Positions 1 through 11,001 of a DNA stretch of 11,001 nt are shown in pieces (positions within the stretch are counted from its first letter, which is position 1; each line of letters begins with the position of its first letter). A model generated the notes under the pieces. That model saw nothing but the letters and a program-made list of their open reading frames with translations. It was not told where the DNA came from and did no database searches. A program made the translations under genes and the position numbers. The stretch covers positions 1 to 11,001 of the IMG/VR virus record IMGVR_UViG_3300045988_029143. One strand, given 5' to 3'. This stretch comes from a virus.

Positions 1-101
1 AAATATGCACAACGCCCCCATTTTTAACATTTCCCAACACATTTTTAACAGTAGCCAACATAGTTTGGCACGCTTTTTGCATAGGCCGTGCCAAACCTCC
101 A
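1..101. repeat. Left inverted terminal repeat (101 bp)
   Basis: Manual alignment: positions 1-101 equal the reverse complement of 10901-11001 except position 20 (A, versus C expected from G at 10982). Identity stops abruptly at 102. The repeat begins AAATATGCAC. Confidence 0.95.
66..81 (+). promoter_or_regulatory. sigma-54-like -24/-12 motif copy 1, inside the left ITR and pointing inward; alternatively an origin protein-binding site
   Basis: TGGCAC(66-71) GCTTT TTGCA(77-81) is an exact match to TGGCAC-N5-TTGCW. It is embedded in the 9-bp inverted repeat TTTGGCACG(64-72)-N14-CGTGCCAAA(87-95). Confidence 0.35.
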
Positions 102-107
102 CGAAGA

Positions 108-143
108 AATAAAAAAATAGCGTACCAAAAGAGTTGGCACGCT
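108..143 (-). terminator. Intrinsic terminator after the last (tail) gene
   Basis: The minus-strand RNA forms AGCGUGCCAA-CUCUU-UUGGUACGCU, a 10-bp stem with one G-U pair, followed by AUUUUUUUAUUU. It lies 15 nt downstream of the stop codon at 158-160. Confidence 0.7.
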
Positions 144-150
144 ATTTGCA
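135..150 (+). promoter_or_regulatory. sigma-54-like -24/-12 motif copy 2 (subterminal, outside the ITR, pointing inward)
   Basis: TGGCAC(135-140) GCTAT TTGCA(146-150) is an exact consensus match. The extended motif TTGGCACGCTATTTGCATAGG is shared with copy 1. It overlaps the terminator hairpin of the last gene and would fire antisense to it. Confidence 0.3.
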
Positions 151-157
151 TAGGTCG

Positions 158-1981
158 TTAATCTATAAAAACACCGCTCTGCAATAAATTAACAATTTCG
201 GTGTACTCGCTTTTCGGCACGTTGTCTATATCGTTATTTACAATCTCATCAAATTTGTAAAAACCCTTTGCACATTGCGAAAGTACAACTTTTTTATAGT
301 CATTGCCGCGTACATAGTTATACTCATTGGTGAAGTAATTCAGCCGCGCAAATGGCTCAAGGCCATATAAATTTTGTGCGTCCCACCTATCACTACCTAT
401 TACGGACGTGTCATAAGTAGTGTAAAGTATATCCGTATTAGGTTGTACGTTATGTAATTGTATGGGTAAATCGTTATTATCCAACAATTTACAAACCCCG
501 TCACCACTAATTACATTAATATCGTACACCAATTTTACAGATTTACCGACATAGTCAGAAGACAAACTAACGATACCAACGAACGGCAAAAATACCTCAA
601 TAAGCATATGTTTGTCAAGCGTTGTGTTATCTTTACGCGGTATTGTTATGCTGCCAAAATCAAGCGTTATTATATCCTTTTCGGGTAAATCTGCGTTTAT
701 CTCGGTGTCATAGTTACCGCATTTTATTCGGTCAGTGCCTTTTGTAGGTATGTGTGTATAAATACGCTTAATTCGGTTAACGTATTCGCTCAAATCTTGT
801 TCGTACGTAATAAATGTGCCGCTTTCAGTGAAGTACCTCTTTTTGCTAAAGGCTTCGAGGTTATCAAGCGTAACTACATACACATTGATAGCACCATAAT
901 TTTTAATACTTGGCTGCACCTCCACTTTCGCCCCTCCACGAAATTCGATGTACTCAGTTTTGGGACATTCGGCCGCAATATCAAGTGTAACGTTACCATG
1001 TTTGCCGTCTTCGCTAATCGTGAAACGTTTGTATTGTACACCTCCGAACTCGTCCGTATATCTTATTTCGGGTGGGTCTGTCTCGCTTGTAAACTTACTA
1101 CCCTCATTTGCTTGTATTGTAACGTTTACTTTGTCGGCCGCGGTGTAGTAGGTGGGTATATTTTCGGCCGTACAATTATACAAAGTATTTTTAACGGGTA
1201 TAGCCTTAATATAAGTACCATTAATAACCACGGACACAGAAGTATCTACATTTGTTAATGAGATATTTGCGGTGTCGCTGCTCTGTATGGTCATTGCATC
1301 AGTATGTGAAACACCGCCTGTATCTGTGTATGTAACGTTTGCCGCGGTTATAACATAGCCTCTTTTTGTACCCTTTAGTGTTACGTTGAAAGTACCATTA
1401 TCGTACGTATATGTGGCCGTTGTATCTGCTATGTTATTTGTTATGGTAATCGTTGGTGTACTCTCCGCAACCTCCCCGTTTAATGTAAAAGCACTATTTT
1501 TTGCGGCATCCTCTATGGTAAAAGTAGCCTTGCTTTTGTCCGTACTTATTACCCCGTCAACGCTTGACGTACCCCCGAAACTATCAATATAAACACATTT
1601 AGGTGCTGTGTTAAACTGATGCCCCGTATCAGCGGTAACTACAATGGTATGTACGCCACCGCTTACACTATATGTATAAGTAGTATTAGTTATATTATTT
1701 GTTATCGTTGGTTCTGCGGGGGCGTCGGGGTCGGCCTTAGTAGCCCCCGTTAAACGTATATTTGTGCCACTAACACCGCTAAAAGTACACGTTTTTAGGT
1801 CGGTAGATACTTTGCCCTTTATGCTGCTGCTCCCGAAATCATCATCAAAACGCGCTCGCGGTGTTGTCGCTGTATCAAACAAAAAACCCGTGTCCGCGGT
1901 ACTAACAATATTATAACCCCCTACACTCTCCGTGTATGTGAATGTAGTGTGTGGGATTTGGTTTGTTATTATATCTGCCAT
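158..1981 (-). CDS. Tail protein: four N-terminal tandem beta-rich repeats (about 88 aa each) fused to a phi29 gp9 tail-knob-like C-terminal region
   Basis: 607-aa ORF with an ATG start. Repeats begin ITNQIPHTTFTYT, ITNNITNTTYTYS and ITNNIADTTATYTY, sharing TADTG and DxFGG features. The C-terminal segments LPFVGIVSLSSDYVGKSVKLVY and NDIDNVPKSEYTEIVNLLQSGVFID resemble phi29 gp9 [22 protein letters not shown] and GDINNNDLQEIRTIFDNGITLW (from memory). Confidence 0.75.
   Translation of the reverse strand: MADIITNQIPHTTFTYTESVGGYNIVSTADTGFLFDTATTPRARFDDDFGSSSIKGKVSTDLKTCTFSGVSGTNIRLTGATKADPDAPAEPTITNNITNTTYTYSVSGGVHTIVVTADTGHQFNTAPKCVYIDSFGGTSSVDGVISTDKSKATFTIEDAAKNSAFTLNGEVAESTPTITITNNIADTTATYTYDNGTFNVTLKGTKRGYVITAANVTYTDTGGVSHTDAMTIQSSDTANISLTNVDTSVSVVINGTYIKAIPVKNTLYNCTAENIPTYYTAADKVNVTIQANEGSKFTSETDPPEIRYTDEFGGVQYKRFTISEDGKHGNVTLDIAAECPKTEYIEFRGGAKVEVQPSIKNYGAINVYVVTLDNLEAFSKKRYFTESGTFITYEQDLSEYVNRIKRIYTHIPTKGTDRIKCGNYDTEINADLPEKDIITLDFGSITIPRKDNTTLDKHMLIEVFLPFVGIVSLSSDYVGKSVKLVYDINVISGDGVCKLLDNNDLPIQLHNVQPNTDILYTTYDTSVIGSDRWDAQNLYGLEPFARLNYFTNEYNYVRGNDYKKVVLSQCAKGFYKFDEIVNNDIDNVPKSEYTEIVNLLQSGVFID
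917..1972 (-). repeat. Protein-level tandem repeats (4 units, aa 4-355 of the tail protein), probably Ig-like or adhesin-type modules
   Basis: Units 1 and 2 align along their whole length by eye. Units 3 and 4 are more diverged but keep the ITNN..TT.TY start and the YTD.(F)GG core. Confidence 0.7.
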
Positions 1982-2482: not shown

Positions 2483-3655
2483 TTAAGCAACAAAGAAAAC
2501 TACAAAATTTTCGTTAGTATCGTTGAAGTAGCCAGCGTCAAACTTATAGTAGTTATTAAAGAACTCGGCCTTTGCGTTATAGTTAGTAGTTACGCGGCGG
2601 TTGAGGTTGCACACACCCAACGCATCGCGGTCAAACATAACACCTAAAACACCGCTAATGTCAACGGTTTTGCCGCCCGTCTCCTTAATGGTAATGTGTG
2701 CCGTACTTGCAAAATCGTACTTTGCACCGCTACCCTGCCAAAATGGTACACTTTCGGCATTCGGCAAAAGCACCTGTTCTTTGTTGTATGTATCGCTGTA
2801 CAAGTAAGCACGGGCCGCCTTTTCGAAGTCAGAGAGTAACACAACGTGTAAGTTTTCGCGAGGTGTAAAGCGTGGCTTACCTCCAATGTTAAATACACTT
2901 GAAATGCTCGCGAGTCTATCCGTGTACAAACCAATTGTGTAACTTGCAAACTTGATGAAATCGGGGTCTGTAAGTGCCTTTTCAGCGGTCAAAGTAGTGC
3001 TTTTGTTATCGTTGTACAACTTAAGCAAGTTAACGCAACGGGCGGTGCTACCTGTTTTGTAGTCTGTGCTACCATCACCACCAAAGGCCGCTCTGTCAGC
3101 TATCAAAGTTTGCGCTATCATGTTATTGATAGTACGCATAATTAACGCGTCCGTCTTAATGGTAATAGACTTTTCCACCGCGTTGTAAATCATAGACAAA
3201 AACGCGTTAAGTTGCTCAGCGTTAGAAAAACTATCTTTTACTTGACGCTCAGTGATAGACACGGGGACTTCGAAAGTTACGCGAGAATTGAAGAACTTTG
3301 CCGTAACTGTTGGCTTGTGAAATACATCTTGTGAGTATACCTCGCCGTCCGTTAGCTCCCAACTCTTATTCTCTTCGGCTTCGGGTAGGTCTGCGCTAAT
3401 CTTTTCGAGTACAGAGCCAAACTCCCAAGCGTCCATAAGTACAGAGGGAATTTTGCCTGCGTACGGGCGATTTACAAAAACCACCTTACCAATATGGTTA
3501 ACAAGTGATTTTACGTAATTGTCGACCGCGTTTTGGTTAAAGACCTCATTACCGAGGTCTACCAACCCCGTTAAATCATCGCTAACAAGTTCGGAGTTAC
3601 CTAAAACCTCTTTTGACACTGAATTTATCAGCGTGTAAATTTGTTTTACTTCCAT
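2483..3655 (-). CDS. Major capsid protein, phi29 gp8-like (HK97 fold expected)
   Basis: 390 aa. YVKSLVNHIGKVVF matches phi29 FITSLVDRIGLVVI, AFLSMIYNAVEKS matches SFVSSIINAIYNS, and the C-terminal NNYYKF...VVFFVA matches WNYYYHV...AVAFV (phi29 sequence from memory). It has its own upstream promoter-like motif and a downstream terminator. Confidence 0.88.
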   Translation of the reverse strand: MEVKQIYTLINSVSKEVLGNSELVSDDLTGLVDLGNEVFNQNAVDNYVKSLVNHIGKVVFVNRPYAGKIPSVLMDAWEFGSVLEKISADLPEAEENKSWELTDGEVYSQDVFHKPTVTAKFFNSRVTFEVPVSITERQVKDSFSNAEQLNAFLSMIYNAVEKSITIKTDALIMRTINNMIAQTLIADRAAFGGDGSTDYKTGSTARCVNLLKLYNDNKSTTLTAEKALTDPDFIKFASYTIGLYTDRLASISSVFNIGGKPRFTPRENLHVVLLSDFEKAARAYLYSDTYNKEQVLLPNAESVPFWQGSGAKYDFASTAHITIKETGGKTVDISGVLGVMFDRDALGVCNLNRRVTTNYNAKAEFFNNYYKFDAGYFNDTNENFVVFFVA

Positions 3656-3656
3656 T

Positions 3657-4226
3657 TTAATATATTAATTTGGTTATGTCATTTATAATTGCAAAAATAA
3701 TGCTTTTGCGCCAATTTTGCAAACTAAATTCAATTTCTTTTGTTAGTTCGTCCGTTGGTGACTTCGAGCCAAGACCTACAACCTTTTGTGTACTCGTGAC
3801 ATTGTTAGTACGTGTATTGTCGTACGTTGTACTATCTTTGTCATACTCCACAAAATCCGTTGCGTTGTATGGCTTGTTAGACGCTACATTTGTATTGTTA
3901 TTGTTGGCGTTTTCGGTGGTCTTATCCTCCCTCGTGGTTTGCTGCTGTACAGGGTTAAGTACATCATATTGGGCATTGTAGGCACTCGCCACGCGTACCC
4001 AATTACTAACACTCAACGCAATTATATTTTTAATGTATTCGTTTGCGTTGGTTTGTGTTATGGTGTTAATACACTCGCGCTCGCTGTAGTTGAGTAGTAC
4101 AAGCGTATCAAGTCCCACACTATCCATGTCACCAAATATTGCAGCGTATTCTGTGGGATAGTTAGGCTTAAATACCGCTGTAAATAGGCCGTGTTTAGGG
4201 TCGGGGTAAAGGTCAATTATCTTCAT
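3657..4226 (-). CDS. Hypothetical virion morphogenesis protein (scaffold or head-tail adaptor, by position only)
   Basis: 189-aa ORF between portal and capsid genes. It is the only gene with a strong SD (AAAGGAGGAAGAAA before the ATG). The centre is N/T/Q-rich and low complexity. I recognise no motif. Confidence 0.8.
   Translation of the reverse strand: MKIIDLYPDPKHGLFTAVFKPNYPTEYAAIFGDMDSVGLDTLVLLNYSERECINTITQTNANEYIKNIIALSVSNWVRVASAYNAQYDVLNPVQQQTTREDKTTENANNNNTNVASNKPYNATDFVEYDKDSTTYDNTRTNNVTSTQKVVGLGSKSPTDELTKEIEFSLQNWRKSIIFAIINDITKLIY
3692..3723 (-). promoter_or_regulatory. Bacteroides-type promoter (-33 TTTG, -7 TAnnTTTG) upstream of the capsid gene
   Basis: The minus strand reads TTTG(3723-3720)-20 nt-TATTTTTG(3699-3692). 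The -7 box ends 36 nt upstream of the MCP ATG at 3655. The motif lies inside the 3' end of the preceding gene. Confidence 0.5.
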
Positions 4227-4242: not shown

Positions 4243-5235
4243 TTAGTCCGTTTCGTTTTCCGTTTCGGTCTCCGTTTCGGTCTCTGTTTCGGTTTCCGTT
4301 ACTTCCTTTTCTTCCTGTTCAGCAACGCTTTCGCCAATAGTAGAAGTATTATCTTTATTATCTTCATTTTCTGTTTCTGTTTTGGTTTCGTCCTTGCGTA
4401 TCGCCCAACTACTTGCAAGTTCCACACTAATTCCAGTGCCAAACATAGCGTTTATTTTTTCCACCGCCTTTTTGCGCTCTTGTAGCATATTGTCTACATA
4501 CGGGTTGAGGGCATCTACATTCATTTGCACCTCACTTGTATTCAGTCGCTCGCGCTTTAGGTTGTAGTTGGCGTTTAGGCCAATTTCGTTAAACGCAGAC
4601 GCTTTGAAATATTGAAGTAATTCAATGAGTTGCGTTATTTGGTTCGCGCTCTGCGTGGAAATGCTTTGCAAGTTCACGCCCTTAAAAAATGCGTTTTCGC
4701 CTATTACGGAAAAATCTCCTTGCAAAATCTTTGTTATAAAATCGTCCGCGCTTTGTTTGGTCTTGTCATCGCTCGCACTTATTAACATGGTGATACGAGA
4801 GAGTACAGAGCAAGTATTGAGCGACAAAAGCGTATCACTACACAAAACGCCATATTTGCCGAAAATCGGCAAAAGGCTATTTGCGCCACTATCATTTTTA
4901 ATCAATACCCCCTCCACGTCTATTTTGTACGACTTGTTTAGGTTTAGGTATGGGTTACTTACAATGTATTCGGTCGCTTCGTTGTACGCGTTGGGGACAC
5001 CTCCAAGGCCGCCAGTAAAAGCATATATTTTGCCGTCTACCTCAGTTACAAAAACATTGCCGTTGGTCTGTAGTAGGTTTTCCAAATTGTTTTGGGGTAA
5101 CGTTTCGGGCAGACCTTTGTACTCAAACATTGCTTGTGTTATGGCTAACATTTTGCGTATGTAACCTTTTACACTTTTGTCTTTATTTTTTATTTCCTCT
5201 TGATACTTCAAGTACAAGTTATCTTTCTTTGCCAT
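4243..5235 (-). CDS. Portal / upper collar connector protein, phi29 gp10-like
   Basis: 330 aa. [25 protein letters not shown] matches phi29 [48 protein letters not shown] matches [21 protein letters not shown], and [10 protein letters not shown] matches ACEKINELYG (from memory). The C-terminal tail is acidic. Confidence 0.88.
   Translation of the reverse strand: [330 protein letters not shown]
4247..4306 (-). repeat. 12-nt tandem repeat (about 5 units) encoding the (Thr-Glu)n tail of the portal
   Basis: Plus-strand units are tccgtttcgttt, tccgtttcggtc, tccgtttcggtc, tctgtttcggtt and tccgttacttcc. They translate on the minus strand to [20 protein letters not shown]. Confidence 0.9.
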
Positions 5236-5425
5236 TTGTCAATGTTTTTATAAGTGTGCTTAACTCGCTCAAAACTCGGGTGTTATCCTCCAAAGTAGTG
5301 CGTAAATTGTCGGTTTCTTCCTTGTGCTGCTCATCGTGTTTTGTCATGTAGTAAAATACAATTAAGCACATCGCAATCGGAAAGCCTACGTTTGAAATCA
5401 TTTGTGTAACTTGTGTAATATCCAT
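5219..5425 (-). CDS. Small single-pass membrane protein (YvrJ-like; holin candidate)
   Basis: 68 aa. The N-terminal hydrophobic segment SNVGFPIAMCLIVFYY is followed by a charged helical tail. The NVGFPI motif recalls the YvrJ small-protein family (from memory). It overlaps the portal gene by 17 nt. Confidence 0.65.
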   Translation of the reverse strand: MDITQVTQMISNVGFPIAMCLIVFYYMTKHDEQHKEETDNLRTTLEDNTRVLSELSTLIKTLTNGKER

Positions 5426-5449: not shown

Positions 5450-5481
5450 CAAATATACGAAAGTTATTTTATACTTACAAT
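5450..5481 (-). promoter_or_regulatory. Possible Bacteroides-type promoter for the structural gene block (good -7 box, imperfect -33)
   Basis: The minus strand reads ATTG(5481-5478)-20 nt-TATATTTG(5457-5450). The -7 box ends 24 nt upstream of the ATG at 5425, in the only intergenic gap between the ATPase and the late genes. Confidence 0.3.
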
Positions 5482-6594
5482 GTTGGTCTTTGCCGAAGTC
5501 ATTAAATAATTTCGCACAATTTCGCCAACCTCATTATTTTGGTAAAATACTTTGTCCGTGGCAAAATACCGCGCTACTTGACTCTCTAAATACGTCGCAC
5601 TACTTATTAATTTGCGCTTGTAGTTTGGTTTCCCGTTCATCGTTAGGCTGTATATTAGTGAGTTTTCGGGGTCTTTTATTGGGGTAGTCTTCATGTGAAT
5701 GTATGTAAAATTTTCGCCCCCGTGCTGTATTATGTTGCCTTGCAAAATATATTCGTTGAATACAATGTAATACACAAAAAGCACGTCATTTGGTTTGTAC
5801 TTCGTTGGCAAATGTGGATAGGCGGCCATTTCCCATTTGCCGCCCGTTATCATTTCCAAATTTTGATTATCAAAACAAAAGTACTTATTACTTGCTTTTT
5901 GTTTAACAATGGTACTGCAATACTCCACCGCTACCACCGCGCCATGTTGCCCAAACTTGTATATGTCAATAGTGCCTTGCTCCATGTTAGTTACTTGCTT
6001 TAGGCCCATTTCCGTGAAGTAAGGGCAAAACTTATTTATTGTGTTGCCCAACATAAATACTTTTACGTTGTCGCGCTGTCGTATTATGGTACTTAAAAGG
6101 TTCATATACAACATGAACTCATCGGGTAGGTAGTACCTACGAGTTAAAAACTCATCAAAAACGATTGTTGTAACGTTGGGGTAACTGCTACTTTTTTCAT
6201 GCTCTTGTTCTGACAGACAAAAGCCATAGCAAAAGGGTGTAGTTTGCGGTACGTACTTCTTTTTTTCGGGGTCATATTTTGCAAGATACCATTTGCCACC
6301 GATATAAAATACCGCGTTAAACTCCCCCTTTGTTATTTCTTCTATGTACCCGTTGGCCACGTGGTTAGTAAATAGATTTTCTGCACGTTTGCCGCGTAAA
6401 TCCTCGCGCCACCTACGTATATAGGCCATTTGTTCGCCCGTCTGTAAATAGCGTTTAATTCCATACGCTAAAGTAGCGTATGTTTTGCCATTCGAACGCT
6501 CGCCAAATATTATGTTATAATCAGCCTTTTTGTTTAGGATATTGGCGAGGGAGTAAAATTTTATCGTTTCTTTCTTATTTGTTTCTTTCTTCAT
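5464..6594 (-). CDS. DNA packaging (encapsidation) ATPase, phi29 gp16-like
   Basis: 376 aa. Walker A is GERSNGKT (nt 6481-6504) and Walker B-like is TTIVFDEF. Size and single-subunit organisation are typical of protein-primed podophage packaging ATPases. Confidence 0.8.
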   Translation of the reverse strand: MKKETNKKETIKFYSLANILNKKADYNIIFGERSNGKTYATLAYGIKRYLQTGEQMAYIRRWREDLRGKRAENLFTNHVANGYIEEITKGEFNAVFYIGGKWYLAKYDPEKKKYVPQTTPFCYGFCLSEQEHEKSSSYPNVTTIVFDEFLTRRYYLPDEFMLYMNLLSTIIRQRDNVKVFMLGNTINKFCPYFTEMGLKQVTNMEQGTIDIYKFGQHGAVVAVEYCSTIVKQKASNKYFCFDNQNLEMITGGKWEMAAYPHLPTKYKPNDVLFVYYIVFNEYILQGNIIQHGGENFTYIHMKTTPIKDPENSLIYSLTMNGKPNYKRKLISSATYLESQVARYFATDKVFYQNNEVGEIVRNYLMTSAKTNIVSIK

Positions 6595-6597
6595 TGT

Positions 6598-8784
6598 TCA
6601 ATCTTTTAGTTTTATGCCTTTTAGATAATTTAGATACATCACACTTAAAGATAAATTATAACTTGTTGGCTCTAAGTGTACACCCGTATTCTCTGCAAAT
6701 GTACACTTTTTACCCGTGTAGTCGGTTACTTCACCCGTTATTTTGTAGTCTATGTATGTATGTATGTTTTTGCCCGTGGCTTCACACGGAAATTCGAGAT
6801 AATTGGTAAAGGCGTTAAATATGTTATCACCATACTTTTTAACAAGGTAGGGTATTGCAGCCTTTTTGTTTACACCGCTTATTGTTAGGCTGTACTCATA
6901 ACTTTTGCCGCCTACGTTTAGGGCGTTTTCTTCCTGCACAATGTACCTCTTTGCGCCCAACGTCTTAAAACGTTTGTACGTCCCTTCATAGTCCCAAACG
7001 CCTAAAGTTTTAGTAACTCCCTTAATGGTTTCGGGTTCGCATTTGGCAAAGTCTATGTTATGATGTTTACACGCGGCCTTTAGTTTGTTATATACTACAT
7101 TGTTGTACATATCAAAATACCGCTTGTGCGCTGCTGCGTTTCTTAGTTTAATGCTGTCAGTATCGCTGTATATGTAATCTTGCTTTGCTTCGTAGATTGC
7201 GGTAAATAAATTGCGCCTTGCATACGCGGTAACAAAAACACCCCACGGATAAAACAAAAAGCGGTTTTTACTTTCGTTGTACTTCTGTAACATCTCGGCC
7301 TTTTCGCTGTCTGTCAATGTATTCTCGTCCCATTTGCCATTATATACAAATTCATCACGCAAAGGGTTAGTAACACACATACCATAGCACGAGTTTAGCA
7401 TTTCCTTGCTATTTAGGTACTCCACTTCCTTTCCTTGCACGCCTTTTAATTTGGTTTTGTTTTCGTACAAATCTAAGATTGTACGTACAAAATCAGTTGG
7501 CAAATAGTCGGCCTTATAGCAATACATTGCACCGATACGGACACCGCCCCACGTGTAAAATTTGCGTATTATGTTGTAGTCTATGTTTGTTATTGTCGTG
7601 GCTACTTTTGCAGCACAAACAAGCCGGCCGTTATTCTCCACGTGGTCTATCTTGACATAGCATTTGCTTACACTTATAGGGTTATCCTGCAACTCTTTAG
7701 CAAAGATGTTGGCAAATTCAATGTCAAATATGCAAAGGTACTTACTTATGTAGTATTCAAATTCTTGCATATTTCGGGGGTGCACTCGTACCCCCTTAGA
7801 CATAGGGAATTTTTCAGACACCATAACATACGGGTAACTGCTCGTAAAATCGTAACTTGCAACGTCTTCACAAATTTCGTCTATGTGGTTTGCGTTGCCG
7901 TGAGTAAATCCACCGCTAAAAGCCCTTTGCAGCATATTAAATTCATGCAACCCCGAAATAGTTAGCGAGTGGATTAAATTAATACACTCCCAATTACGAG
8001 CGGTTTTGCCGTTTACCTTTTTACTTAACATTGCTTTGCGGCAATGTTTACGCACGTACCCCGTTTTGGTTAGAGGCAAACGCGTTATTAACTTGTTTTG
8101 CTCTAATTGCTCTTGTATGTAGTTCATAACCACTTTTATATCATTCGCGCAGTAAAGCAACTCTTTCGGGGTTAGTTCGGTCTGCACGTGTCGTATTAGG
8201 GTATAGTCTAAATCTCCAACCATTTTTGCACACTTGTATGTTTGTAGTTGCTCGCCTAACTTTGCAAGGTTGTAGCCGCTTAACAAGTAGCTGCATCTAA
8301 ATTCTATGCCTAACGTTGTGGTTGCATATAGGGGCTTGCGCAAATCAATGCTAAAAACTTTCTCCCATTCAAACAGAGTACGCAAAAACTGAAATTCGTA
8401 GGATAAATTGTGTATATATACGATTAGTTTTTTGTTATTGGATAACTCCAATGTTTGTGCTATCGTGTTACACATTGTTACAAACTCGTCCCATGTACGG
8501 CCTACTATTACGTACCCATTTATACCAAATTGCCACACGTACATAATAGCACATTTTTCCATTTTTACACCTATCTTGTTGTATTGTTCGTAAGTGTATG
8601 TGTTGCCGTCTTCGTCTCGGTAAAAACTACTTACCTCAATGTCAAAGGCGCAAGGGACGTTGTAAAATTTACACCCCTTATTGTTGCCTATTACGTTTTT
8701 GTCATTTACGGCCAACTCCAAAATTTTTTGTATGTCGGTGGTCTTATATATACCGCTGTGCTGTTCATATTGCACCTTTTTCAT
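6598..8784 (-). CDS. Family B DNA polymerase, protein-primed type
   Basis: 728 aa. Exo I is FDIEV (D48, E50). Exo II is HNLSYEF. Exo III is YCANDIKV. Motif A is YDFTSSYP. Motif B is KEMLNSCYG. A TPR2-like insert lies before GVFVTAYARR. Motif C is YSDTDS (nt 7153-7170, verified by back-translation). KxY is AKRY. Confidence 0.95.
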   Translation of the reverse strand: MKKVQYEQHSGIYKTTDIQKILELAVNDKNVIGNNKGCKFYNVPCAFDIEVSSFYRDEDGNTYTYEQYNKIGVKMEKCAIMYVWQFGINGYVIVGRTWDEFVTMCNTIAQTLELSNNKKLIVYIHNLSYEFQFLRTLFEWEKVFSIDLRKPLYATTTLGIEFRCSYLLSGYNLAKLGEQLQTYKCAKMVGDLDYTLIRHVQTELTPKELLYCANDIKVVMNYIQEQLEQNKLITRLPLTKTGYVRKHCRKAMLSKKVNGKTARNWECINLIHSLTISGLHEFNMLQRAFSGGFTHGNANHIDEICEDVASYDFTSSYPYVMVSEKFPMSKGVRVHPRNMQEFEYYISKYLCIFDIEFANIFAKELQDNPISVSKCYVKIDHVENNGRLVCAAKVATTITNIDYNIIRKFYTWGGVRIGAMYCYKADYLPTDFVRTILDLYENKTKLKGVQGKEVEYLNSKEMLNSCYGMCVTNPLRDEFVYNGKWDENTLTDSEKAEMLQKYNESKNRFLFYPWGVFVTAYARRNLFTAIYEAKQDYIYSDTDSIKLRNAAAHKRYFDMYNNVVYNKLKAACKHHNIDFAKCEPETIKGVTKTLGVWDYEGTYKRFKTLGAKRYIVQEENALNVGGKSYEYSLTISGVNKKAAIPYLVKKYGDNIFNAFTNYLEFPCEATGKNIHTYIDYKITGEVTDYTGKKCTFAENTGVHLEPTSYNLSLSVMYLNYLKGIKLKD

Positions 8785-9425: not shown

Positions 9426-9463
9426 AAAATTAAAATAGGTAGGTAGTTATATGCTACCTACCT
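9426..9463 (-). terminator. Intrinsic terminator or attenuator between the early small genes and the TP-polymerase genes
   Basis: A perfect 10-bp stem AGGTAGGTAG(9437-9446)/CTACCTACCT(9454-9463) has a 7-nt loop. On the minus strand it is followed by AUUUUAAUUUU, immediately before the ATG at 9419. Confidence 0.65.
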
Positions 9464-9477
9464 AATTGTGTTACTTG

Positions 9478-10234: not shown

Positions 10235-10279
10235 ATGTTCCACGTGAAACAATTTTGTTTTGTTCCACGTGAAACAATT
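10235..10279. promoter_or_regulatory. Two copies of an operator-like near-palindrome (TGTTCCACGTGAAACAATT), 25 bp apart
   Basis: A perfect 19-bp direct repeat occurs at 10236-10254 and 10261-10279. Each contains TTGTTC-CACGTG-AAACAA (18-bp palindrome, with one mismatched pair in copy 2 and two in copy 1). It lies in the 63-nt gap between two early genes. Confidence 0.5.
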
Positions 10280-10721: not shown

Positions 10722-10767
10722 TTTTAAGCATTTCTAAATCTTTCATTTGTTATTTATTTTGATATTG

Positions 10768-10799
10768 CAAAGGTAGTAACTTTGTGTACTTAATGCAAA
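10768..10799 (-). promoter_or_regulatory. Bacteroides-type promoter (-33 TTTG, -7 TAnnTTTG) at the right end, facing the early genes
   Basis: The minus strand reads TTTG(10799-10796)-20 nt-TACCTTTG(10775-10768). It sits in an AT-rich non-coding region upstream of all genes. Confidence 0.5.
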
Positions 10800-10847
10800 T
10801 TTTTAGTATTAAAATATCTTAAAAGATTATTTTTTGTTTCGTTGCTA

Positions 10848-10863
10848 TGCGAATAGCGTGCCA
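10848..10863 (-). promoter_or_regulatory. sigma-54-like -24/-12 motif copy 3 (subterminal at the right end, pointing inward, same direction as the genes)
   Basis: The minus strand reads TGGCAC GCTAT TCGCA. The GG and GC dinucleotides keep correct spacing, with one mismatch in the -12 box. Its distance from the right end (139 nt) is similar to that of copy 2 from the left end (135 nt). Confidence 0.3.
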
Positions 10864-10900
10864 AAAATCGCTTTTCGTAGGTGCTTTTTTCTTGTGATTT

Positions 10901-11001
10901 TGGAGGTTTGGCACGGCCTATGCAAAAAGCGTGCCAAACTATGTTGGCTACTGTTAAAAATGTGTTGGGAAATGTTAAAAAGGGGGGCGTTGTGCATATT
11001 T
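10901..11001. repeat. Right inverted terminal repeat (101 bp)
   Basis: Reverse complement of 1-101 with 100/101 identity. The single difference lies in a C5A versus C6 run. Confidence 0.95.
10921..10936 (-). promoter_or_regulatory. sigma-54-like -24/-12 motif copy 4, inside the right ITR and pointing inward toward the genes
   Basis: The minus strand reads TGGCACGCTTTTTGCA, the mirror of copy 1. It is oriented with all minus-strand genes. Confidence 0.35.

Follow-up and report, generated by a model that had tools for sequence, protein, structure and literature searches.

The early promoters of phage phi29 (A2c/A2b and C2) lie near the genome ends, depend on sigma-A/sigma-70 and need no ATP-dependent activator. 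Promoters of the sigma-54 class, for their part, remain silent until an ATP-driven activator remodels the polymerase, and are seen as serving the stress and nutrient responses of cells rather than the programmes of lytic phages. To our knowledge, every known sigma-54 promoter requires an enhancer-binding activator, and we know of no lytic phage that relies on this activator-dependent class. A literature search on sigma-54 promoters in phages gave no report of phages built around them. The inverted terminal repeat (ITR) of adenovirus is a protein-primed replication origin that carries sites for the host factors NFI and Oct-1 at a fixed distance from the terminus.

The window (i.e., the whole stretch of 11,001 nucleotides analysed here) is the complete linear 11-kb genome of a phi29-like phage. 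It encodes a putative terminal protein of 212 aa, a type B polymerase, a gp16-like ATPase, a connector and a phi29-type capsid; it replicates by protein priming; and all its genes lie on the minus strand and are read from the right end to the left end. The order of the genes agrees with that of its Astrithrvirus relatives. With phi29 and Astrithrvirus the window shares the genome plan and the placement of promoters for early genes near both termini; it differs from them in that the terminal position is occupied by an element matching the sigma-54 class, while the housekeeping promoter lies further in. In Astrithrvirus (Proteobacterial relatives), the equivalent inward positions read as sigma-70 -35/-10 sequences, and inward genes are found at the tail end. 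Megablast of the window against GenBank phages returned no match. An Rfam scan of the window (E up to 1) was likewise empty and, in consequence, no pRNA or other known RNA was recognized at the window ends. The features needed for the argument are the following:

1-101 (partner 10901-11001), no strand: left ITR, 100/101 identical to the reverse complement of the right end
19-60 (mirrored at 10942-10983), plus strand: two tandem 21-nt units CATTTTTAACAnnnnCCAACA (repeat family D20, 86% identity)
63-96 (mirrored at 10906-10939), no strand: imperfect hairpin round copy 1, formed by GTTTGGCACG, a 14-nt loop and CGTGCCAAAC (family D2)
65-84, plus strand: left copy 1 of the motif, TTGGCACGCTTTTTGCATAG, inside the ITR; GG at 67-68, GC at 79-80; matrix score 32.5
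108-147, minus strand: intrinsic terminator of the minus-strand gene array; stem of 14 pairs (147-134 with 128-115), T-run 114-108
134-153, plus strand: left copy 2, TTGGCACGCTATTTGCATAG, outside the ITR; GC at 148-149; matrix score 27.5
158-1981, minus strand: last gene of the array, for a 607-aa putative tail protein; its stop end is 5 nt from left copy 2
10236-10276, minus strand: near-palindrome TGTTTCACGTGGAACA, two copies 25 nt apart (0/200 shuffles)
10768-10799, minus strand: housekeeping promoter of Bacteroidota type, TTTG-N20-TACCTTTG, a block that does not vary among relatives
10845-10864, minus strand: right copy 2, TTGGCACGCTATTCGCATAG, outside the ITR; one mismatch in the -12 region (TTCGCA); matrix score 27.4
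10918-10937, minus strand: right copy 1, within the ITR and in the same direction as all genes; GC at 10923-10922; matrix score 32.5

The true physical terminus has the sequence AAATATGCAC; in two relatives (L004 and L012) an Illumina ligation adapter immediately precedes AAATATGCA and thus marks the physical terminus. A first-pass annotation of this DNA had placed two of the motif copies outside the ITR. The placement holds: the near-perfect repeat ends at 101, not at 131, covers positions 1-101 with one mismatch and, hence, leaves copy 2 outside. The tandem 21-nt units adjoin copy 1 on its upstream side, and their TTTAAC...CCAAC blocks are kept in all lineages of the family; their binding partner may be an origin protein or an activator, with no assignment between the two.

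As the first-pass annotation had reported, the 20-mer TTGGCACGCTWTTYGCATAG occurs in four inward-facing copies, at 65-84(+), 134-153(+), 10845-10864(-) and 10918-10937(-), and no further match was found in the window with up to 3 mismatches allowed. In 200 dinucleotide-preserving shuffles of the window, the mean number of matches was 0.00 and no shuffle had any. TGGCAC-N5-TTGCA is exact in three of the four copies, and these same three match the extended consensus TGGCACG-N4-TTGCW at 12/12 positions; the fourth (TGGCACGCTATTCGCA, 10848-10863) has one mismatch (11/12) and keeps GG-N10-GC intact, a pattern present in 4/4 copies. This distribution had been described correctly, and so had the symmetric placement: counted from its own end, TGGCAC begins at nt 66 in both first copies and at nt 135 (left) and 139 (right) in the second ones. 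Copy 2 is a 19/20-identical island within diverged flanks, with a 4-nt offset between the two ends.

Scoring was carried out with a position weight matrix (PWM) built from independent large-phage promoter sites (65 by the matrix's own count, versus 64 unique sites). The two ITR copies of the window reach 32.5, which is the maximum possible score, and the outer copies 27.5 and 27.4; no other site of the window exceeds 9.7, and 100 shuffles yielded 17.0 at most. Given that the minus strand carries every gene, the right-end pair is in sense and upstream of the early genes, co-oriented with the whole array and with the first ORFs 100-270 nt downstream. For the same reason the left-end pair reads antisense into the tail gene, as had been claimed, without any plus-strand ORF to read in sense (the window has no plus-strand ORF of at least 40 aa before position 622). 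It is therefore the right-end pair, and not the left one, that looks productive. The predicted starts lie (i) at about nt 92 for left copy 1, inward and antisense to the tail gene; (ii) at about nt 161 for left copy 2, at the tail-gene stop codon; (iii) at about 10910 for right copy 1; and (iv) at about 10837 for right copy 2. This last copy stands upstream of the early promoter and genes and, in an alignment of the early ends of relatives, is kept between variable spacers.

Copy 1 forms part of an imperfect hairpin whose inverted arm is found in 4/5 lineages, with loops of 10-19 nt. Two uses of this dyad were set aside: (i) a second, outward promoter in its reverse reading, because the PWM score is only 8.2 versus 32.5; and (ii) an NFI-like dyad of fixed spacing for a dimeric protein, because the arm distance varies (10-19 nt) and the arm is absent in one lineage.

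Five lineages of the family, with polymerases 61-95% identical, carry 1-4 inward sites at each end. These relatives come from human-gut assemblies, and the family as a whole from gut and rumen samples. In their alignment the conserved part is the sigma-54 consensus, TTTGGCACG-S-T-W-TTTGCW, and not the 20-mer of the window: conservation ends at TTGCW, the downstream ATAG is lost and the information content falls after -11. Among the 34 unique sites of the five lineages, GG and the G of GC are invariant, the -12 C is present in 28/34, and position -11 is split between A (19) and T (15); the scan pattern fixed TGGC and TT, so those columns are invariant by construction. The minority of copies that have lost the -12 C (TTGTT, TTGTA, TTGGT) includes early-end copy 2 of L001 and L003, copy 1 of L195, L203 and L213, and the sole copy of some lineages. 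The TGGCAC of copy 1 was found at nt 66 from the terminus in 31/33 ends scanned across the five lineages; the two remaining ends, both of L020, have copy 1 in the same alignment columns, but the pattern used for the scan did not catch it. The extra copies outside the ITR, instead, are variable in distance (124-190 nt) and in number (1-4).

In most lineages both ends follow the same order: sigma-54 sites, TGTTTCACGTGGAACA repeats, housekeeping promoter and inward gene. The near-palindrome, which in relatives is present in 2-3 copies between the sigma-54 sites and the housekeeping promoter of both ends, is probably an operator. As most relatives have inward genes at both ends, the left-end pair of the window is probably a mirror imposed by the ITR plus a re-used relic. 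The inward gene at the tail end of L174 was compared with one ORF of the window, and the two showed no similarity. Relatives with a polymerase identity of 53% or less are mostly represented by contigs without ends and, hence, no absence of the motif can be claimed for them.

Unrelated large phage contigs, 116-361 kb in full length, carry the same consensus. Their 64 unique sites give TTTGGCACGnTwwTTGCATATA, with a variable spacer and with GG and the G of GC invariant. They stand before most genes and nearly all on the coding strand (18:1 in L034, 1:19 in L043), with an ORF start no more than 120 nt away in 54/64 and at a median of 48 nt. These dense arrays (for example, in IMGVR_UViG_3300028888_003249 and 3300032030_000285) have in common with the window the consensus itself, which window copy 1 matches exactly and with the maximum PWM score, and AT-rich leaders without Shine-Dalgarno sequences. 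They differ in that their sites precede most genes at about 48 nt from the ATG, whereas the window has four sites within 153 nt of its ends, and there is no detectable DNA similarity between the two. Blastn of L034 against GenBank phages gave no match, and PHROGs and Pfam searches of the large-phage ORFs were uninformative. The first-pass statement that RpoN-type promoters are rare in phages does not hold, in view of these 64 sites, for the uncultivated phages that share these environments.

The exact 19-mer is also found at no fewer than 120 bacterial loci, versus about 17 expected by chance (a uniform-composition estimate). Going by the first residues of the downstream ORFs, the matches listed lie upstream of what we take to be well-known sigma-54 operons: (i) glnB/PII in Fibrobacter; (ii) mannose-type PTS genes in Trichococcus and Pediococcus, and rocA in Priestia; (iii) pspA in Spirochaetales; and (iv) htpG, clpB, hsp20 and an FtsX-type permease gene in Prevotella and Bacteroidaceae. 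In one Muribaculaceae genome the site is also found upstream of a cas1 gene. Bacterial -24/-12 promoters (those of glnAp2, pspA, nifH and Bacteroidota chaperone genes) have the same YTGGCACG-N4-TTGCW, with GG and GC 10 nt apart, and the likeness extends to the identical 19-mer at such operons and to the position of the right-end phage copies, upstream of genes and co-oriented with them. The phage sites differ from the bacterial ones in that (i) they belong to a lytic, protein-primed genome, with copy 1 in the ITR at a fixed terminus distance; (ii) neither an upstream activator site nor an activator of the phage's own is visible; (iii) they are in tandem with a housekeeping promoter; and (iv) two of them are antisense to a gene. 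What is observed, then, is that the sites exist, are conserved and match the sigma-54 consensus, and that this consensus occupies promoter positions elsewhere.

The host is probably a gut or rumen member of the Bacteroidota, with Prevotella/Bacteroidaceae as the likely, inferred group; the absence of a Shine-Dalgarno sequence in 13/14 window genes fits such a host. As the host remains unidentified, the evidence that it possesses rpoN is indirect and consists of (i) the Bacteroidota-type host signals; (ii) the 19-mer at presumed chaperone genes of Prevotella/Bacteroidaceae; and (iii) the sigma-54 regulons reported for Bacteroidota, with chaperone genes reportedly enriched for sigma-54 promoters (PMC12316311).

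Regarding the activator, the earlier remark that none is encoded was borne out by the searches performed: (i) the window has no Pfam or NCBIfam match to Sigma54_activat or to an AAA+ regulator; (ii) its small ORFs yielded no activator or sigma factor with Pfam, NCBIfam and PHROGs; (iii) neither a GAFTGA motif nor an RpoN box was found in 1.3 Mb of phage loci; and (iv) no enhancer-binding protein, GAFTGA, RpoN box or recognisable upstream activator site was detected in the window or in any complete relative. In the same way, there is no bEBP-type palindrome upstream of the window copies, and no upstream activator site common to the phage ends and the host chaperone promoters was seen. This does not rule out a host activator that works from another place or from solution.

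Left copy 2 had been proposed to double as half of a terminator stem, and the folding confirms it. The -24 half plus the spacer of this copy make up, on the minus strand, the proximal arm of a 14-bp stem (147-115). Followed by TTTTTTTATTT with its T-run, this stem folds with -21.1 kcal/mol (z = -5.5), including a G-U pair on the minus strand only. Compensatory changes were found in two relatives: G->A in the arm with C->T in the motif (L002), and T->C in the arm with A->G in the motif (L004). The arrangement is absent at the other three motif copies.

Between right copy 2 and the first early ORFs lies the housekeeping promoter, whose predicted start falls near 10761. The pattern TTTG-N18-21-TAnnTTTG has 3 matches in the window versus 0.46 expected, among them this early promoter and one located 37 nt ahead of the capsid gene. 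Sigma-70-type promoters are not enriched in the window (31 found versus 27.6 expected). The motif itself was considered as a Bacteroidota -33/-7 promoter and discarded on inspection, no TAnnTTTG being present 18-21 nt downstream of either TTTG.

The reading to which we incline, not without reserve, is that the motif is a sigma-54-class (-24/-12) element, that the right-end pair drives the gene array and that the left-end pair is a mirror or relic. The first-pass interpretation of the motif as a sigma-54 promoter, which kept a role at the origin open, is supported as to type by the PWM, the relatives and the bacterial operons; its function as a promoter is only inferred. There are no transcript data, and sigma-54 binding, firing and the identity of both activator and host are all inferences. 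Under the sigma-54 promoter reading, the right end would present two tandem sites upstream of the housekeeping promoter and the early genes, facing the same way, at which the sigma-54 holoenzyme of the host would bind with high affinity and dock as a closed complex. Activation of an enhancer-binding ATPase of the host would then let transcription begin about 12 nt past the GC, at about 10910 and 10837, and proceed into the gene array. The htpG, clpB and hsp20 promoters of Bacteroidales are identical, and the ATPase that drives them may be the activator here too. Left copy 1 would be retained because it belongs to the 101-nt ITR core. Left copy 2 would be the relic of an ancestral inward transcription unit, which most relatives retain, and would have been put to new use as the proximal arm of the terminator behind the tail gene.

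Several observations speak against the promoter reading: (i) no activator was found in the window or in complete relatives; (ii) a good housekeeping promoter is already present between right copy 2 and the genes; (iii) the left-end copies have no sense target; (iv) the exact nt-66 placement in every lineage is not needed by a promoter, while an origin element might need it; and (v) the -12 C is lost in a minority of copies, including the only copy of some lineages.

The alternative that survives best, unlikely as we hold it to be, is an origin-auxiliary site. Nucleotides 66-81 of each ITR would be part of the protein-primed origin, bound by a phage replication protein or by the host sigma-54/holoenzyme as an architectural factor, and transcription would be incidental. 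It draws on the position of the site within the near-perfect 101-nt ITR core, with TGGCAC at nt 66 in 31/33 ends of five lineages and preceded by two TTTAAC units in phase, with 21 nt between their starts. It draws also on the retention of the site at the tail end of the window's clade, where there is no gene to express; on the tolerated loss of the -12 C in some single-copy lineages; and on the ITR of Vibrio phage K58 g2, which contains TTGGCACGATTATTGAA with TGGCAC starting 72 nt from the terminus. Nevertheless, the consensus stands as well before genes far from the termini in unrelated large phages and at bacterial sigma-54 operons, and the extra copies outside the ITR, given their variable distance and number, are not confined to origins. 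Moreover, conservation tracks the sigma-54 consensus, down to the choice between A and T at -11, and Astrithrvirus, with the same replication machinery, has sigma-70-like promoter sequences there instead. The resemblance to the adenovirus ITR is one of layout only (a site at nt 66 of the ITR in five lineages): no evidence ties the phage site to replication, the ITR does not hold the extra copies, and the protein bound would be a sigma factor or its holoenzyme.

A further possibility, to which we grant only a slight chance, is that the closed complex of the holoenzyme at nt 66-81 serves a purpose other than making mRNA. It might be a host-factor component of the origin, in which case it would be, by analogy, the bacterial counterpart of NFI/Oct-1 at the adenovirus ITR. 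Or else it might act as a decoy, the high-copy sites draining scarce sigma-54 from host stress genes and from defence genes that bear the site. Such a role would explain why the distance to the terminus does not vary, why copies exist at the end without genes, why the activator is missing and why loss of the -12 C is tolerated.

It is very improbable, in our judgement, that a different factor is involved, i.e., that the motif is an operator or promoter for a phage early protein or for an alternative sigma-70-family host factor and merely resembles the sigma-54 consensus. Several early proteins have no assigned function, and conservation does extend beyond the classic consensus (T at spacer position 9, the T-run and the upstream TT). 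Convergence on a 12/12 match to a 16-nt bipartite consensus is, however, very unlikely; the identical 19-mer stands at sigma-54-dependent operons in several phyla; and the motif, on inspection, misfits the Bacteroidota -33/-7 geometry. Besides, the 11-kb phage and the large phages have no identified protein in common and, in consequence, the factor should be the host's.

A purely structural origin of the motif, in which a GC-rich half and a T-run make a hairpin or terminator module and the sigma-54 likeness is a by-product, is barely tenable: left copy 2 is indeed a real terminator arm with compensatory changes, copy 1 has an inverted arm downstream, and the inverted arm AGCGTGCCA lies just upstream of many large-phage and some bacterial copies, giving a hairpin and T-run, but a partner arm is missing from right copy 2 and from many large-phage sites, the hairpin of copy 1 is not followed by a T-run on either strand, the -12 TTGCW is conserved though outside the stem, and the sequence of a terminator stem is normally not conserved across unrelated genomes.

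To return to the sigma-54 promoter reading, both terminal repeats bear a perfect sigma-54 site, always at the same position, throughout a family of phi29-like phages of 11 kb. Were an origin role true, it would be the first bacterial case of a host transcription factor site in a protein-primed origin. If the sites fire, these phages of Bacteroidota either couple their transcription to the host stress regulon or possess an unknown sigma-54 activation of their own; either outcome, if true, would be a new mode of phage-host transcriptional coupling. Sites that fire would also offer a handle for the engineering of Bacteroides and Prevotella phages.

The 20-mer TTGGCACGCTWTTYGCATAG lies, inward-facing at both ends of the window, at 65-84 and 134-153 on the plus strand (left copies 1 and 2) and at 10918-10937 and 10845-10864 on the minus strand (right copies 1 and 2). 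No further match with three or fewer mismatches was found in the window, nor any in shuffled sequences. The motif is genuine, conserved and far from random. As the first-pass annotation had reported, TGGCAC-N5-TTGCA is exact in three copies, and the fourth has TTCGCA in its -12 region and retains GG-N10-GC. The exact three agree with the extended TGGCACG-N4-TTGCW consensus as well, at 12 of 12 positions. The inverted terminal repeat (ITR) comprises 1-101, the reverse complement of 10901-11001 with one mismatch, beyond which the ends diverge. Copy 2 was rightly placed outside it at each end: the two are identical at 19 of 20 positions, with flanks that cannot be aligned and a shift of 4 nt.

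The window, of 11,001 bp, is a complete linear phage genome, whose main genes (the first four assigned with Pfam and PHROGs) are the following:

2483-3655, minus strand, phi29-type major capsid protein
4243-5235, minus strand, upper collar connector
5464-6594, minus strand, gp16-type packaging ATPase
6598-8784, minus strand, protein-primed type B DNA polymerase
158-1981, minus strand, putative tail protein of 607 aa, last gene of the array

All genes read leftward, which makes the right end early and puts the left end downstream of the last gene. Two hairpins with a T-run on the minus strand (9436-9464 and 2439-2463), a perfect bidirectional one between a 117-aa gene and a putative terminal-protein gene and a terminator hairpin after the capsid gene, are strong and suggest internal attenuation points of a single long transcription unit. 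Within the tail gene, three diverged 40-nt repeats spaced 261-264 nt (1408-1972) point to repetition of a protein domain of about 87 residues. The nearest cultured relatives are Astrithrvirus phages (of Salmonella, Acinetobacter and Pectobacterium) and one Vibrio phage, with polymerases only 40-46% identical, and no GenBank phage gave a nucleotide match to the window.

In two related contigs, L004 (1-49, both ends) and L012 (3' end), an Illumina TruSeq ligation adapter is fused directly to AAATATGCA, which is therefore the physical DNA terminus. IMG/VR contigs can keep sequencing adapters; the 5' end of contig L010 carries a Nextera adapter at an internal tagmentation site. ITR length differs widely within the family: the window has 101 nt, and other members exceed 300-430 nt (L013, L020, L174, L181, L213). 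In some relatives the ITR spans the housekeeping promoter and a gene start. Such variation implies that copying between ends is frequent and able to spread promoter copies to the opposite end.

By every sequence test applied, the motif reads as a sigma-54-class promoter element, an assignment supported by three independent lines: bacterial genomes, unrelated phages and small-phage relatives. Regarding the first, the exact 19-mer TTGGCACGCTNTTTGCATA was scanned against one genome per bacterial species (596 Gb) and found at no fewer than 120 loci, versus some 17 expected under our uniform-composition estimate. Among the matches listed, it precedes (i) PII/glnB in Fibrobacter; (ii) mannose-family PTS operons in Trichococcus and Pediococcus; (iii) rocA in Priestia and pspA in Spirochaetales; and (iv) htpG, clpB, hsp20 and an FtsX-type permease in Prevotella, Bacteroidaceae and Paludibacteraceae. 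By our reading of the first ORF residues, through which the downstream genes were identified, these are known sigma-54 targets. According to a 2025 survey, Bacteroidota chaperone genes are enriched for sigma-54 promoters (PMC12316311). In a Muribaculaceae MAG (L056, around 5378-5396), the 19-mer follows an inverted arm AAAGCGTGCCAAAG and is flanked by a CRISPR array on one side and, on the other, by an ORF whose first residues read as cas1; this position hints at a CRISPR-Cas locus under sigma-54 control in a Bacteroidales genome.

The same 19-mer is present several times in each of a number of unrelated IMG/VR phage contigs of 14-361 kb, and a loose-consensus scan of parts of them yielded 64 unique sites with the consensus TTTGGCACGnTwwTTGCATATA. 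These sites lie almost only on the coding strand (18:1 in L034, 1:19 in L043), for 54 of the 64 an ORF begins no more than 120 nt away (median 48 nt), and their spacer varies (CGCTTTT, CGATAAT, TGGTATT, CACTATT) with GG and the G of GC invariant; taken together, strand bias, ORF proximity and a variable spacer between fixed positions amount to promoter-like behaviour. The contigs L034 (the whole of IMGVR_UViG_3300028888_003249), L043, L042, L045, L025, L029, L030 and L036 have a GC content of 35-37% and dense sigma-54-consensus arrays, with sites about 48 nt upstream of most genes. Just upstream of many sites stands a TGTCA...TGACA palindrome or an inverted arm AGCGTGCCA, and the examined parts of these contigs showed no activator gene. 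The RpoN weight-matrix scan proposed in the first-pass annotation was run with a matrix derived from these sites (its own count is 65): both ITR copies score 32.5, the maximum possible, and the copies outside the ITR 27.5 and 27.4, against 9.7 for the next-best window site and a top score of 17.0 in 100 shuffles.

Relatives were collected by polymerase alignment scans of viral contigs and metagenomes (94-46% identity), many of them from human-gut assemblies. Every lineage of at least 61% identity has, in contigs reaching the terminus, one to four inward-facing sites per end, with the conserved core TTTGGCACG-S-T-W-TTTGCW. Position -11 holds either A or T, and ATAG, part of the 20-mer in the window, is not retained. 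Conservation thus follows the sigma-54 consensus and not the whole 20-mer, the outcome put forward beforehand as favouring such a promoter over a phage-specific operator. Among distant cultured relatives, the ITR of Vibrio phage K58 g2 (L018, a permuted assembly with its two ends joined by an N run) contains TTGGCACGATTATTGAA at 7384-7399(+) and 7141-7126(-), matching 11 of 12 consensus positions with GA replacing GC; its TGGCAC begins 72 nt from the terminus, and apparent sigma-70 promoters follow. Pectobacterium phage DU_PP_III (L017) carries TGGCACGAAATGTGCT from 11184(-), an inward sigma-54-like site (11/12) outside the ITR, 321 nt from the right end, which could be a chance match (about 0.1 expected per genome).

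In most lineages both ends contain, from the terminus inward, two TTTAAC...CCAAC units, one to three sigma-54 sites, two or three TGTTTCACGTGGAACA copies, a Bacteroidota-type housekeeping promoter (TTTG, about 20 nt, TAnnTTTG) and an inward-facing gene. The proteobacterial Astrithrvirus phages share this end plan, with sequences read as sigma-70 promoters. In the window, two tandem 21-nt units CATTTTTAACAnnnnCCAACA (19-60, mirrored at 10942-10983) stand immediately upstream of copy 1; their TTTAAC and CCAAC blocks are kept in all lineages, and in some relatives every extra sigma-54 site has its own TTTAACA block in front. The near-palindrome TGTTTCACGTGGAACA, probably an operator for an unidentified regulator, occurs in the window as two copies 25 nt apart between the first and second early genes (10236-10276, minus strand), and in L174, L181, L191, L195 and L210 as two or three copies between sigma-54 sites and housekeeping promoter at both ends.

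The tail end of the window clade lacks a counterpart of the relatives' inward gene: no plus-strand ORF of at least 40 aa occurs before position 622, and the one window ORF compared with the inward 117-aa gene of L174 bore no similarity to it (the window's 117-aa protein is a homologue of the early 118-aa protein of L174). Given this absence, the left-end pair is best explained as an ITR mirror (copy 1) and a relic promoter (copy 2), the latter retained because it became a terminator arm. It does double as half of a terminator, as had been claimed, pairing with an inverted partial copy at 115-128 in a 14-bp hairpin followed by a minus-strand T-run, which is the terminator of the gene array. Selection maintains this terminator as a hairpin. 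L002 compensates a G-to-A substitution in the distal arm with C-to-T in the motif, and L004 a T-to-C substitution with A-to-G, turning TGGCAC into TGGCGC. The sole non-Watson-Crick position of the stem forms a G-U pair only on minus-strand RNA. Left copy 2 is the only copy for which a purely structural role would be an adequate explanation.

The host is unidentified, and only indirect signals point to Bacteroidota: the -33/-7 promoter pattern has three window matches versus 0.46 expected, Shine-Dalgarno sequences are absent from 13 of 14 genes, sigma-70-type sites are at background level, GC content is 39%, and relatives were assembled from the human gut. Two of the matches are:

10799-10768, minus strand, conserved early promoter
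3692-3723, minus strand, 37 nt upstream of the capsid gene start, within the final part of the gene before it; possibly an internal late promoter

The most likely function, favoured with somewhat better than even confidence, is transcription from the right-end pair into the gene array; such firing is inferred, without transcript data. Several facts do not fit a simple promoter: (i) no enhancer-binding protein is encoded in the window, in agreement with the first-pass annotation, or in complete relatives, and neither a sigma-54 gene nor a palindrome typical of such activators is present in them; (ii) a housekeeping promoter already serves the early genes; (iii) the -12 C is lost in a minority of copies, including the sole copy of some lineages; (iv) in 31 of 33 ends scanned, from five lineages, the TGGCAC of copy 1 begins at nt 66 (in the other two, both from L020, copy 1 escaped the scan pattern and aligns to the same columns); and (v) an inverted arm, for which we cannot account, lies downstream of copy 1 in four of five lineages (loop of 10-19 nt). 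This arm was ruled out as a second promoter by matrix scoring. No sigma-54 promoter is known to be activator-independent.

The main rival, a role of copy 1 at the replication origin, is considered unlikely. A fixed start at nt 66 is what an origin element would show, and the adenovirus NFI and Oct-1 sites are origin elements of comparably fixed position; the fixed start may also reflect no more than an indel-free ITR core. Recognition by another factor is more doubtful still.

As to the missing activator, the Prevotella htpG, clpB and hsp20 promoters that contain the 19-mer directly follow a terminator and lack a visible activator site, unlike the permease promoters, with their clear TGTGCG...CGCACA palindromes. 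By inference only, the chaperone regulon might be driven by an activator needing no nearby site, to which the phage copies could respond too. Literature searches turned up no published account of phages that use this promoter class. If the chaperone-activator idea holds, phage transcription would be coupled to the stress caused by infection.
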